A stretch of DNA of 64,000 nucleotides from Escherichia coli. Its GTDB lineage: Bacteria; Pseudomonadota; Gammaproteobacteria; Enterobacterales; Enterobacteriaceae. Below, one piece after another: positions 3,111 through 5,124 of this stretch. Location of the stretch: assembly GCF_044647545.1 (NCBI RefSeq), contig NZ_CP172818.1. One strand, written 5' to 3'. Position numbers and translations under genes: made by a program. Position 1 is the first letter of the stretch. Every line of letters starts with the position of its first letter. The notes beneath the pieces were generated by a model, which did not search any database, was not told the DNA's origin, and saw nothing but the letters and a program-made list of their open reading frames with translations.

Positions 3111-5124
3111 GGTCTGCCTGATGTTTGTGGAATCGAGGGGCATAGTATACCTGAAGCAGGGTGGGGATGTTTTACGAAAGTTGTCGCGATGTTGACAAGA
3201 AGAGAATGAATGAGAGGCCAGGACATCTTTGTAATAGAAATAGCAATAATTTCATATTCACTGAAAATATTTTTAATTTTTATTTATAGTCATGGATTAT
3301 TGTTTTTGGGGATTTGGTTGCGTTATCAAAAACGGAATGATTTAAAGTTCATTGGTTATTGATAGATTATTTGTCTGGTTTGTGTGTTTGATATTTTAAA
3401 TGCATATGCTTTAAAAATGGAAATCCTGTTAACTTGTTGAAACATTAAGCCTTTATCAATTTTTTCTTTGTGTGTTCCTCCGTGCTTTATATATGTCCGT
3501 AACCGGACTTCGGGGAAAGAATAATTGAACCATTCCTCAATAACGCCGCATAATCGTTAGCGCGAAACATAATATGTTTTCTATGCATTGATAATTGATG
3601 GATCAACTTATTACGTCCCTGAGGAGGGATGACAAATGCACTCCTGGAAAAAGAAACTTGTAGTATCACAATTAGCATTGGCTTGCACTCTGGCTATCAC
3701 CTCTCAGGCTAATGCAGCGACCTACTGATACCTGGACTTATATCGATAATCCCGTTACAGCACTTGATTGGGATCATATGGATAAGGCAGGCACTGTAGA
3801 TGGCAACTATGTAAACTATAGTGGTTTTGTCTATTACAACAACACCAATGGTGATTTCGATCAGTCCTTTAACGGCGATACCGTTAACGGCACGATCTCA
3901 ACCTATTATTTGAACCATGATTATGCAGACAGTACTGCTAATCAGCTTGATATCAGTAATTCAGTGATTCACGGTTCGATTACTTCTATGCTGCCTGGCG
4001 GTTATTATGATCGTTTTGATGCAGATGGTAATAATCTGGGTGGATATGATTTTTACACTGATGCGGTTGTTGATACACACTGGCGTGATGGTGATGTTTT
4101 CACTTTGAACATTGCTAACACTACTATTGATGATGATTATGAAGCTCTTTACTTCACTGATTCTTATAAAGATGGTGATGTAACCAAGCACACAAATGAG
4201 ACATTTGATACAAGTGAAGGCGTTGCTGTTAATCTTGATGTAGAAAGTAACATCAATATTTCCAATAACTCCCGCGTTGCAGGTATTGCATTATCTCAAG
4301 GTAATACTTACAACGAAACCTACACTACCGAATCTCATACTTGGGATAACAATATCTCTGTAAAAGATTCCACAGTGACTTCGGGTTCAAATTATATCCT
4401 GGATAGCAATACTTATGGCAAAACTGGTCACTTTGGCAATTCTGATGAACCGAGTGATTATGCTGGCCCGGGTGATGTTGCAATGTCCTTTACTGCTTCA
4501 GGTTCCGACTATGCGATGAAGAACAATGTATTCCTCAGCAATTCAACGCTGATGGGTGATGTTGCCTTTACCAGCACCTGGAATAGTAATTTTGATCCGA
4601 ATGGTCATGATTCCAACGGTGACGGGGTGAAAGATACCAACGGGGGTTGGACTGATGATAGCCTCAACGTTGATGAACTAAATCTCACTCTCGATAACGG
4701 AAGCAAGTGGGTTGGTCAGGCAATTTATAACGTTGCTGAAACGTCAGCAATGTATGATGTTGCTACAAACAGCCTTACTCCTGATGCAACATATGAAAAC
4801 AATGACTGGAAACGTGTTGTTGATGACAAGGTCTTCCAGAGCGGTGTATTTAACGTAGCGTTGAATAACGGTTCTGAATGGGATACTACAGGTCGTTCCA
4901 TCGTTGATACCTTGACAGTTAATAATGGTTCTCAGGTTAATGTTTCGGAATCTAAATTAACTTCAGATACTATCGATTTAACTAACGGTTCTTCGCTGAA
5001 CATTGGTGAAGATGGCTACGTTGATACCGATCATCTGACTATTAACTCCTACAGTACTGTTGCGTTGACCGAATCTACTGGGTGGGGGGCTGATTGATCC
5101 TACCCACGTAATATGGACACAGGC

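Follow-up and report, generated by a model that had tools for sequence, protein, structure and literature searches.

Why are hemB and the divergently oriented autotransporter gene ehaB (yaiT) of Escherichia coli separated by a long AT-rich stretch, and which of the two genes does it serve? In the window (the whole 64,000-nucleotide stretch of E. coli DNA that was analyzed), the initial annotation had placed a gene-free, low-GC region at 3144–3635 and likened it, together with the decayed yaiT and the low-GC yaiV, to the edge of an old horizontally acquired islet of a kind usually bound by H-NS. The region is present as placed, with 33.7% GC over 3144–3635 compared with 54.2% in hemB, and its right end is correct; its left end lies further out, as hemB begins (MTDLIQ...) at 3110. 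A 335-aa extended open reading frame ending at 3143 was rejected as hemB, for which RefSeq annotates 324 aa (975 bp both in strain FDAARGOS_497, which carries an identical gene, and in K-12). With the hemB start at 3110, the non-coding spacer therefore spans 3111–3635 (525 bp, 35.0% GC), and its hemB-proximal and central parts are arranged as follows.

2136–3110, minus strand: hemB coding sequence (porphobilinogen synthase, 324 aa, 975 bp; Pfam ALAD, E=1.9e-135)
3111–3195, minus strand: hemB leader and core promoter, conserved across Enterobacteriaceae with or without the ehaB-iprA islet
3196–3289, no strand: AT-rich block containing AATATTTTTAATTTTTATTTATAG, conserved within E. coli, not across genera
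3290–3490, no strand: hypervariable AT-rich core (70% AT), occurring as discrete allele families

Over the 525 bp the AT content is 65%, against 49% for the entire window (50.8% GC), and the GC content of ampH, the core gene beyond ehaB and iprA, is 54.7%. Of all 492-bp windows, only 1.9% reach the AT content of 3144–3635, and the islet-specific part, 3196–3635, with 67.7% AT, falls within the top 0.18% of 440-bp windows. An aberrant insert consisting of A and T only is found elsewhere in the window, and the 440-bp ranking excludes it. A-tracts occur 1.9 times per 100 bp of the spacer (0.5 in hemB, 0.35–1.1 across the comparison sequence) and TpA steps at a frequency of 0.078 (0.031 in hemB, 0.031–0.044 across the comparison sequence); the tract AATATTTTTAATTTTTATTTATAG, quoted earlier as an example, is located at 3266–3289. 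The K-12 version of the spacer, 523 bp long with 34% GC, ranks second in length and third from the bottom in GC when compared with the intergenic regions measuring 80 bp or more in the 62-kb neighborhood of K-12 (29 regions, median 167 bp), and so is unusual among its neighbors but not unique. Because the AT-rich spacers yaiS/tauA and ddlA/iraP nearby are comparable, composition alone is not diagnostic. The region could be taken for an ordinary spacer between divergent promoters, unrelated to H-NS and AT-rich in the way that intergenic DNA and the sequences upstream of promoters usually are in bacteria, with ehaB poorly expressed for want of an activator; within these 62 kb, intergenic DNA has a median GC of only 43.8%, and three other regions are at 30–35%, although for the window both the length and the AT content of the spacer are extreme.

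The first ~85 bp are, from comparison among genera, a part of hemB and not of the islet. On the minus strand, the hemB promoter has a −10 element, TATACT (3149–3144), and a conserved block, GTAAAACA (3175–3168), and a σ70 ChIP peak is located 22 bp upstream of the hemB ATG in K-12 (PMC3688515 supplement). These hemB-proximal ~85 bp are common to the occupied and the empty configurations of the locus, and the cross-genus alignment puts the islet boundary at approximately 3195 of the window. That E. coli strain 4848 retains just 52 bp of the hemB upstream region, followed by IS1, indicates that hemB is independent of the AT-rich part.

Beyond this boundary, the spacer leads into the following genes.

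3636–3728, plus strand: start of ehaB/yaiT with the signal peptide MHSWKKKLVVSQLALACTLAITSQANA; a 1-bp insertion is followed by a premature TGA
3712–5094, plus strand: yaiT fragment 1 (passenger domain), frameshifted, 100% identical to K-12, GC3 0.355
5095–6352, minus strand: IS3 within yaiT at the K-12 position (insF 5125–5991, insE 5988–6287)
6356–7822, plus strand: yaiT fragment 2 (autochaperone and autotransporter β-barrel; Pfam Autotransporter, E=2.7e-47)
7908–8531, plus strand: iprA (yaiV), orphan Crp-family regulator (NCBIfam IprA equivalog, E=5e-138)
8532–9689, minus strand: ampH, core gene bordering the islet opposite hemB, and adjoining hemB in islet-free species

The decay of yaiT reported in the initial annotation is evident both from the frameshift, which a three-way alignment traces to an extra C at ~3726 relative to K-12 and FDAARGOS_497, and from the IS3, whose coordinates were mapped from the K-12 IS3B annotation at 100% identity. 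The IS3 junction is common to 369 complete genomes, and all 30 among the matches listed resemble laboratory derivatives of K-12. Fragment 2 also matches Pertactin, AC_1, and TIGR01414 (E=1.5e-85). In most E. coli, the gene is intact and annotated as EhaB, and its signal peptide hardly varies among 39 species, but as yaiT is a pseudogene in the window, as it is in K-12, any regulation would be vestigial here. IprA, encoded just downstream of ehaB, matches Pfam HTH_46 and, weakly, cNMP_binding, has a conserved winged helix-turn-helix, and is listed as a member of the Crp family (PMC4797297).

In a gene-order survey of 80 loci, the arrangement ampH-iprA-ehaB-spacer-hemB, with a spacer of 389–617 bp, was found in 39 species, whereas in Klebsiella, Raoultella, Kosakonia, and some Citrobacter the site is empty, with ampH and hemB only 103–173 bp apart and 43–61% GC between them; ehaB was never seen without iprA in the surveyed loci. 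The presence in 39 species and the empty site in others identify ehaB-iprA as an old, variably present islet. Of the 5426 complete E. coli genomes, 5421 have the locus, which is also found in many genera, and it is therefore ancient species core and not recent foreign DNA; the divergence pattern of the islet across genera looks vertical. GC and codon usage are not uniform across the locus: GC3 is 0.355 in the yaiT passenger region and 0.368 in iprA (40.1% GC overall, in keeping with the low GC ascribed to yaiV), far below the core-gene mean of 0.591 (sd 0.046), and the β-barrel half of yaiT has a normal GC3 of 0.58. This atypical codon composition, combined with the presence and absence of the islet among relatives, suggests a horizontal origin by an ancient acquisition. 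However, the GC of the spacer is 0.316–0.383 in 38 of the 39 species, whereas the GC3 of the adjacent coding DNA varies with the host (0.34–0.72 in the passenger region, 0.37–0.73 in iprA), as exemplified by Leclercia, in which a passenger region with a GC3 of 0.72 stands next to a spacer with a GC of 0.36. Thus, the low GC of the spacer is not that of an unameliorated edge, and its AT-richness appears to be a maintained regulatory property. The notion of an old islet edge holds for the codon composition and the empty sites in other species; it does not hold for the low GC, which is maintained, or for the first ~85 bp, which are those of hemB.

The upstream half of the spacer varies strongly within the species. 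The block at 3196–3289 was delimited with an alignment of eight E. coli alleles and with that across genera. Divergence is 2–11% within Escherichia over 3111–3289 and 23–36% between E. coli allele families over 3290–3490, compared with 1–3% in hemB. The spacer of the window matches that of E. coli FDAARGOS_497 at 100% identity, whereas its identity to K-12 strains is only 85.6%, and an identification of the window as K-12 was rejected. The window and K-12 alleles differ by 20–29% per 100 bp over the central 300 bp and are 70–80% identical in the core, the 200-bp bins of which are among the three most divergent of 295 against K-12. Among complete genomes, the K-12 type is represented 2741 times, the O157 type 407 times, and the window type 305 times, and the incongruent groupings of adjacent spacer segments indicate recombination. 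Sequence conservation between genera is absent from the central 200 bp. Intergenic regions that are switched or hypervariable are familiar in E. coli, in which the replacement of regulatory regions has been described in pan-genome studies. The present spacer resembles them in its discrete, divergent alleles between conserved genes and in the signs of recombination, but differs in that its alleles are co-linear and alignable, only the upstream AT-rich tract varying and the core promoter remaining unswitched.

The initial annotation had found no open reading frame in the region, which holds for conserved ones, although small ones of up to 50 aa on the plus strand and 63 aa on the minus strand are present. 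Such small open reading frames, the discreteness of the allele families, and the switches that adhesin genes often carry, such as the invertible element of UpaE (PMC6083910), could point to a hidden element (a gene for a small protein, a small RNA, or an invertible or Dam-methylation phase switch) that would account for the length of the spacer as well as for its allele families. We regard this as very improbable. The open reading frames of 42, 50, and 63 aa have no Pfam match and are not kept among seven E. coli alleles, and a scan of 2800–4000 against Rfam 15 at a permissive threshold gave at best a eukaryotic scaRNA model (E=4.1, 10.7 bits). No tandem repeats were found in the spacer, and the search for inverted or direct repeats of a switch or a miniature mobile element yielded only short, imperfect, AT-rich pairs. 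The allele families align co-linearly at 65–77% identity and are not inversions of one another. The locus is like the control regions of agn43 (Dam/OxyR), fimS, and UpaE in that a gene for a surface adhesin or autotransporter is preceded by a long regulatory leader; unlike these, it has a single GATC site in place of a cluster, lacks inverted repeats at its flanks, and contains no gene for a recombinase from hemB to ampH, and so is not an invertible or phase-variable switch of that class.

On the ehaB side, about a quarter of the spacer appears to be a strongly conserved promoter and leader, with the following elements.

3495–3508, no strand: palindrome GTCCG-TAAC-CGGAC, candidate transcription-factor operator, centered at ~−59.5
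3525–3554, plus strand: predicted σ70 promoter of ehaB/yaiT, TTGAAC-18 nt-CATAAT (9/12 in a consensus scan)
3561–3635, plus strand: predicted 75-nt 5′ leader of ehaB, placed from the position of the −10 element
3614–3631, plus strand: predicted 7-bp hairpin CGUCCCU-GAGG-AGGGAUG, enclosing the Shine–Dalgarno sequence GGAGG at 3623–3627

This module of 145 bp, comprising the palindrome, the −35/−10 pair, and the hairpin at the ribosome-binding site, is conserved across ~20 genera, and better so than hemB itself. The palindrome lies 16 nt from the −35 element, a distance fixed in ~20 genera, and is found in nearly all islet-bearing loci and is absent from the empty sites. It occurs once in the window, where one site with at most one mismatch was found against 1.5 expected, a count not above chance, and its weight therefore rests on its conservation; a second copy near iprA was found neither in the window nor in 66 loci. 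An RNA structure as the meaning of the palindrome was rejected on account of the uncompensated variation of its half-sites and its location upstream of the predicted promoter. With inverted 5-bp half-sites, a 4-nt gap, and a fixed position relative to the promoter, it fits the layout of a Crp/Fnr-type operator. The hexamers TTGAAC and CATAAT and their spacing are invariant across ~20 genera, whereas the sequence between them varies; the number of promoter-like matches in the region, four versus 2.7 expected from shuffles, is not above expectation, and in K-12, σ70 ChIP peaks coincide with the hemB promoter and with yaiT +136 but not with the predicted ehaB promoter (PMC3688515 supplement). Within the leader, a box, TTGATGGATCAAC (3595–3607), is also conserved across genera. 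The hairpin occurs in each of the 20 sequences, with an RNAalifold consensus energy of −9.9 kcal/mol, and recurs in the single-sequence minimum-energy fold. Its inner five pairs are essentially invariant and its outer two vary on one side, and, as there are no compensatory pairs, this invariance could reflect the Shine–Dalgarno sequence alone.

This conservation bears on whether the spacer might be an unameliorated relic, that is, a non-functional foreign leftover at the edge of the islet, decaying together with yaiT. In accord with a relic, the passenger domain and iprA of E. coli are also low in GC, the central 200 bp are highly diverse within E. coli and unconserved between genera, and yaiT is a pseudogene both here and in K-12. 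Nevertheless, such an origin of the AT-richness is quite improbable, since a long low-GC spacer is retained in 38 of 39 species, even beside coding DNA of host-like GC in Leclercia, the promoter-proximal 145 bp outdo hemB in conservation, and ehaB is intact in most E. coli.

As to H-NS, ChIP-chip enrichment in K-12 includes a position 127 bp inside yaiT, where H-NS and Fis (ChIP-seq) enrichment overlap an FNR motif, TTGATTGGGATCAT (window 3765–3778), and an FNR peak is present at this motif only in a Δhns ΔstpA strain; positions in yaiV were likewise scored as H-NS-enriched (PMC3688515 supplements). The gene table supplementing a study on H-NS-bound horizontally transferred genes has the entry TRUE for yaiV in three columns that seem to be H-NS-binding flags (PMC4720273 supplement), and the supplements of PMC4288151 and PMC4764244 contained no matches. 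Because the window is not K-12 and the core of its spacer is only 70–80% identical, the K-12 ChIP data apply to it only by homology: enrichment does exist at yaiT +127 and at yaiV, as the initial annotation would lead one to expect, but the K-12 spacer is a different allele. The high-affinity H-NS motif TCGATAAATT has two sites with two mismatches in the spacer, or 3.8 versus 1.3 per kb elsewhere, from few matches. A literature search found no papers on yaiT with H-NS, and a limited one found no regulatory data on E. coli ehaB with H-NS and no report on EhaB/SeaB regulation.

The closest known system is yaiU (seaB) of Salmonella Typhimurium, the positional orthologue of ehaB, which has the same hemB-spacer-autotransporter-iprA position and a near-identical signal peptide. 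Expression of this gene in laboratory culture is poor (bioRxiv 10.64898/2026.01.14.699485), and the gene is repressed by H-NS, which binds its promoter in EMSA, ITC, and ChIP-qPCR with a Kd of 0.29–0.46 µM (PMC10657408); the spacer between yaiU and yaiV is among the sites obtained by H-NS SELEX (PMC3946193). Loci of related Salmonella subspecies have the same neighborhood as the window; Salmonella enterica subsp. enterica was outside the compared loci and presumably shares the promoter module, judging from the ~20 other genera. Between genera, however, the AT-rich sequences further upstream cannot be aligned, and ehaB here is a pseudogene. The H-NS-bound acquired AT-rich regions of K-12, known from genome-wide ChIP studies and from the concept of xenogeneic silencing, are also comparable, being, like the spacer, high in AT, rich in TpA, several hundred base pairs long, and continued into AT-rich coding DNA, but the ehaB-iprA islet is ancient and near-universal in E. 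coli, and hence 'foreign' only in a deep historical sense. An AT-rich, H-NS-covered spacer in front of a silent adhesin gene thus represents a class already known genome-wide and for the Salmonella orthologue.

An ordinary spacer unrelated to H-NS appears unlikely in the light of these data. It would accord with the lack of a clear enrichment of the H-NS nucleation motif and with the position of the published K-12 ChIP evidence, a point 127 bp inside yaiT and outside the spacer; yet the enrichment lies immediately downstream, FNR occupies that site only in Δhns ΔstpA cells, and in Salmonella, the orthologous promoter has been validated as a target of H-NS. The designation of the region as H-NS-bound territory is partly sustained, by the AT content and by the published H-NS binding at K-12 yaiT and Salmonella yaiU, with the K-12 data applying by homology only; coverage of this particular spacer allele by H-NS may be expected by analogy.

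On the basis of the observed composition, segment boundaries, islet presence and absence, and conservation pattern, we consider it probable that 3111–3635 is a composite divergent regulatory spacer between hemB and ehaB, combining an H-NS platform with a conserved promoter module. The hemB-proximal ~85 bp would be a small housekeeping hemB promoter and leader, and the remaining ~440 bp would have arrived with the ehaB-iprA islet and serve it. The AT-rich upstream tract of ~300 bp is most likely the platform for H-NS (and StpA), from which H-NS would polymerize over the promoter into the AT-rich passenger-coding DNA, the filament keeping ehaB silent in ordinary growth. The 5-N4-5 palindrome at ~−59.5 seems suitably placed for an activator or anti-silencer, and the TTGAAC-18-CATAAT promoter would drive a leader of ~75 nt with its ribosome-binding site within the 7-bp hairpin, the start of ehaB transcription and the roles of palindrome and hairpin being predicted from these positions. 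We further speculate that IprA binds the palindrome GTCCG-N4-CGGAC as its operator and counters the H-NS silencing, that the hairpin at the ribosome-binding site serves as a second, translational gate, and that the alleles of the 200-bp tract fall into ancient classes, which differ as much as E. coli and E. albertii do and are maintained by selection or introgression in linkage with the variable passenger domain; this extended proposal is rather doubtful. IprA is a candidate for the palindrome binder because it is an orphan of the Crp family encoded beside ehaB, has a conserved winged helix-turn-helix, and is present wherever ehaB was found, all of which is circumstantial.

The promoter module, the fixed palindrome, and the hairpin at the ribosome-binding site offer precise, testable targets in the search for the signal that switches ehaB on. 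A near-invariant promoter beside 200 bp that differ as much between strains as between species is, moreover, a clean, small example, and this contrast is relevant to the ways in which non-coding DNA is shaped by selection, recombination, and the binding of nucleoid proteins. The EhaB/SeaB protein itself has been studied as an adhesin and a vaccine antigen.

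From tauB to past yajQ, the window aligns collinearly with E. coli K-12 at ~97.5% identity; its gene order is tauC, tauD, hemB, spacer, yaiT/ehaB, iprA/yaiV, ampH. RefSeq gives hemB a length of 324 aa in K-12 as well as in the best-matching genome; the 335-aa reading frame ending at 3143 in the initial annotation is therefore over-extended, and the spacer occupies 3111–3635. The AT-rich, gene-free character ascribed to this region is borne out: GC content is 35.0% (33.7% in the span originally delimited), compared with 54.2% in hemB, 54.7% in ampH, and 50.8% in the whole window; only 1.9% of equal-sized stretches of the window are equally AT-rich, and the density of A-tracts and TpA steps is two to four times that of the flanking genes. 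This composition and length are unusual, not unique: against 29 other intergenic regions surrounding the locus in K-12 (median 167 bp, 43.8% GC), the spacer ranks second in length and third from the bottom in GC. The spacer was found in 5,421 of 5,426 complete E. coli genomes, but just 307 of these reach 95% identity to the window allele; it is 100% identical to FDAARGOS_497 and 85.6% to K-12 strains, so that the assumed K-12 identity of the strain does not hold. Alignment of eight E. coli alleles and 80 hemB loci (Enterobacteriaceae, Erwiniaceae) divides it into four segments.

Features of the hemB–ehaB spacer and its borders (window coordinates)
2136–3110, minus strand: hemB
3111–3635: spacer, 525 bp
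3111 to ~3195: segment 1, hemB promoter and leader, kept in all Enterobacteriaceae with or without the adhesin gene
3149–3144, minus strand: hemB −10-like TATACT, within segment 1
3196–3289: segment 2, AT-rich block, conservation limited to E. coli
3290–3490: segment 3, hypervariable core, 70% AT
3490–3635: segment 4, ehaB promoter–leader module, nearly invariant in E. coli, recognisable in ~20 genera
3495–3508: palindrome GTCCG-N4-CGGAC, in segment 4
3525–3554: predicted promoter, TTGAAC, 18-nt variable spacer, CATAAT; TTGAAC lies exactly 16 nt past the palindrome
3595–3607: leader box TTGATGGATCAAC, inside a leader of variable length
3614–3631: 7-bp hairpin around the Shine–Dalgarno sequence, formed by invariant TCCCTGAGGAGGGATGAC; consensus −9.9 kcal/mol
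3636: ATG of yaiT/ehaB

Segment 1, which also has a conserved GTAAAACA block, is the hemB promoter and leader; in K-12, sigma-70 has a published ChIP peak 22 bp ahead of the hemB start codon (PMC3688515 supplement). In E. coli strain 4848 (NZ_CP103596.1, 3001–3963; locus L009 of the set), an IS1 copy sits 52 bp in front of the hemB ATG (after window 3162), and the remaining spacer and nearly all of ehaB have been deleted in an IS1-mediated event. Here hemB retains the −10 region only, the IS1 end presumably serving as the upstream promoter part, and the rest of the spacer is therefore dispensable for hemB.

The order ampH–iprA–ehaB–spacer–hemB recurs in 39 species of many genera (including Escherichia, Citrobacter, Enterobacter, Lelliottia, Leclercia, Kluyvera, Pseudocitrobacter, Yokenella, Trabulsiella, and Phytobacter), with a spacer of 389–617 bp, whereas empty sites, with an ampH–hemB gap of 103–173 bp and 43–61% GC, occur in Klebsiella, Raoultella, several Kosakonia, Pseudescherichia, and some Citrobacter; iprA without ehaB is confined to a few taxa. 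Thus, ehaB–iprA is a variably present insert, with its hemB-side boundary placed by the alignment inside the spacer, at ~3195. At L026, L029, L027, L039, and L069 (Salmonella enterica subsp. arizonae and diarizonae, Kluyvera intermedia, a Pluralibacter MAG, and Phytobacter ursingii), the autotransporter has been lost and iprA lies beside hemB; these are independent decay events of one locus. In diarizonae the palindrome persists, as does a 45-aa remnant of the barrel.

Codon composition also sets the islet apart, as had been anticipated for yaiT–yaiV, GC3 being 0.355 in the passenger-coding part and 0.368 in iprA against 0.591 ± 0.046 (about five SD higher) in core genes; the beta-barrel part of ehaB is normal (0.58). 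The islet is nevertheless old, as orthologue identities fall with taxonomic distance; in a separate study, seaB, the Salmonella orthologue, is in every case the neighbour of hemB, upstream of iprA (bioRxiv 10.64898/2026.01.14.699485). Spacer GC stays at 0.316–0.383 in 38 of the 39 species, while GC3 of the passenger (0.34–0.72) and of iprA (0.37–0.73) follows the host. Therefore, the AT-richness of the spacer is maintained, presumably because it serves a function, and is not a leftover compositional signature. Of the proposed old islet edge, the variably present insert with its boundary near 3195 stands, but the unameliorated low GC does not.

Binding by H-NS, also expected of this locus, is on record in K-12, where an FNR motif 127 bp into yaiT, equivalent to window 3765–3778, overlaps H-NS ChIP-chip and Fis ChIP-seq enrichment and gives an FNR peak in delta-hns delta-stpA only, a pattern repeated at yaiV (PMC3688515 supplements). 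The window carries this site, reported as H-NS-occluded, as the FNR-consensus-like TTGATTGGGATCAT. A K-12 sigma-70 ChIP peak 9 bp from it (PMC3688515 supplements) suggests an intragenic promoter of the H-NS-suppressed kind. An H-NS SELEX site corresponds to the yaiU–yaiV spacer (PMC3946193), and yaiV is TRUE in three gene-table columns, read here as probable H-NS-binding flags, in the supplement of a study comparing horizontally transferred genes bound by H-NS (PMC4720273). In Salmonella Typhimurium, the yaiU promoter is a model H-NS target (EMSA, Kd 0.29–0.46 µM; ChIP-qPCR signal; repression; PMC10657408), seaB is poorly expressed in culture (bioRxiv 10.64898/2026.01.14.699485), and a SoxS ChIP-seq peak lies in the hemB<>yaiU spacer (PMC10268841). 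In the spacer, the high-affinity H-NS motif has two matches at two mismatches (3.8 per kb against 1.3 per kb elsewhere), too few to weigh either way. By analogy with the K-12 and Salmonella data, the window allele is likely covered by H-NS. Altogether, the initial annotation was correct in its observation and largely right in kind in its interpretation, erring in strain identity, the hemB boundary, and the reading of low GC as an unameliorated edge. An AT-rich spacer of the H-NS type is already known; the promoter module, palindrome, ribosome-binding-site hairpin, and a core that diverges at species level add modestly to this and can be tested.

Constant hexamers at a fixed spacing, separated by varying sequence, are the classic signature of a genuine promoter, and the conservation pattern of TTGAAC-18-CATAAT has this footprint, which marks it as the predicted ehaB promoter. 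The Shine–Dalgarno hairpin shows zero covariation, its sequence being invariant across the compared loci, and the ehaB ATG is followed by a near-invariant signal peptide. With its 5-N4-5 architecture the palindrome resembles Fnr-type sites, and its position (~−59.5) is class-I-like; nearly all islet-bearing loci have it, and empty sites and all but two iprA-only loci lack it. The product of iprA, the gene just after ehaB, is an orphan member of the Crp regulator family (PMC4797297) with a Pfam HTH_46 domain and a weak cNMP-binding match; across genera its winged-helix segment hardly varies, the remaining protein being 40–55% identical, and ehaB without iprA occurs in 0 of 80 loci. These circumstantial observations are compatible with IprA acting at the palindrome as a candidate operator, which is speculative; no second copy was found near iprA across the loci, and a conserved factor of the GntR or another type is just as possible.

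Between E. coli allele families, the 201-bp core diverges by 23–36%, compared with 1–3% in hemB and 4–12% at its four-fold degenerate sites, whereas between E. coli and E. albertii the values are 34–41% for the core and 31–34% for the hemB four-fold sites. The core thus evolves at about the neutral rate between species, yet alleles within E. coli are as distant as separate species. This pattern favours allele classes that are old or introgressed over a local increase in mutation rate, since a seven-fold higher rate would saturate the interspecies comparison. Megablast with three cores retrieved disjoint genome sets (2,741 of K-12 type, 407 of O157 type, and 305 with the window allele), and ~1,970 genomes have further core types. 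Among 295 200-bp bins compared with K-12, two spacer bins are second and third most divergent, the first and fourth lying in the ehaB passenger and linker. The most divergent part (6435–6831, linker and passenger end; 61–84% identity per 100 bp, with a 24-nt indel) fits the known hypervariability of autotransporter passenger domains.

Left, core, and right spacer segments yield conflicting strain groupings (on the left UK_Dog_Liverpool resembles O157 and W4 the window, but in the core they resemble K-12 and O157, respectively), showing that recombination has shuffled the spacer. Between the spacer and the passenger domain, which is just as variable, the conserved promoter and signal-peptide block acts as a crossover site; the spacer allele of FDAARGOS_497 recurs in M00057, but their passengers are unrelated. 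At L010, a record titled Escherichia coli SCPM-O-B-8794, hemB is 6–7% off typical E. coli (22–28% at four-fold sites), more than in the cryptic-clade Escherichia sp. locus L011; the record probably represents a divergent lineage of Escherichia and not E. coli sensu stricto.

From 3727 to ~6470 (2.75 kb; yaiT passenger fragment and IS3 at the K-12 insertion site), the window is 100.0% identical to K-12, within flanks that are 99.5–100% FDAARGOS_497-like and ~97.5% K-12-like. Of the complete genomes, 369 share the yaiT::IS3 junction, and 30 of 30 among the matches listed look like K-12 laboratory derivatives; no complete genome combines this segment with FDAARGOS_497-like flanks, and the window genome is therefore recombinant, hybrid, or composite. 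At the left junction (3720–3730), a single extra C (GCGACCTA-C-TGATACC) shifts the yaiT frame past the signal peptide, with TGA at 3726–3728, a second inactivating lesion independent of IS3. Elsewhere, 1,154 bp of near-pure A/T (37632–38785; ~6% GC, long poly-A/poly-T runs) separate the malZ stop codon from the acpH 3′ end, where K-12 has 2 bp. The malZ–acpH locus is present in 5,424 complete E. coli genomes, none of which has this insert, only the flanks matching; being unlike enterobacterial DNA, it may be contamination, a misassembly, a cloning artefact, or an artificial insert. It extends the acpH ORF to 209 aa.
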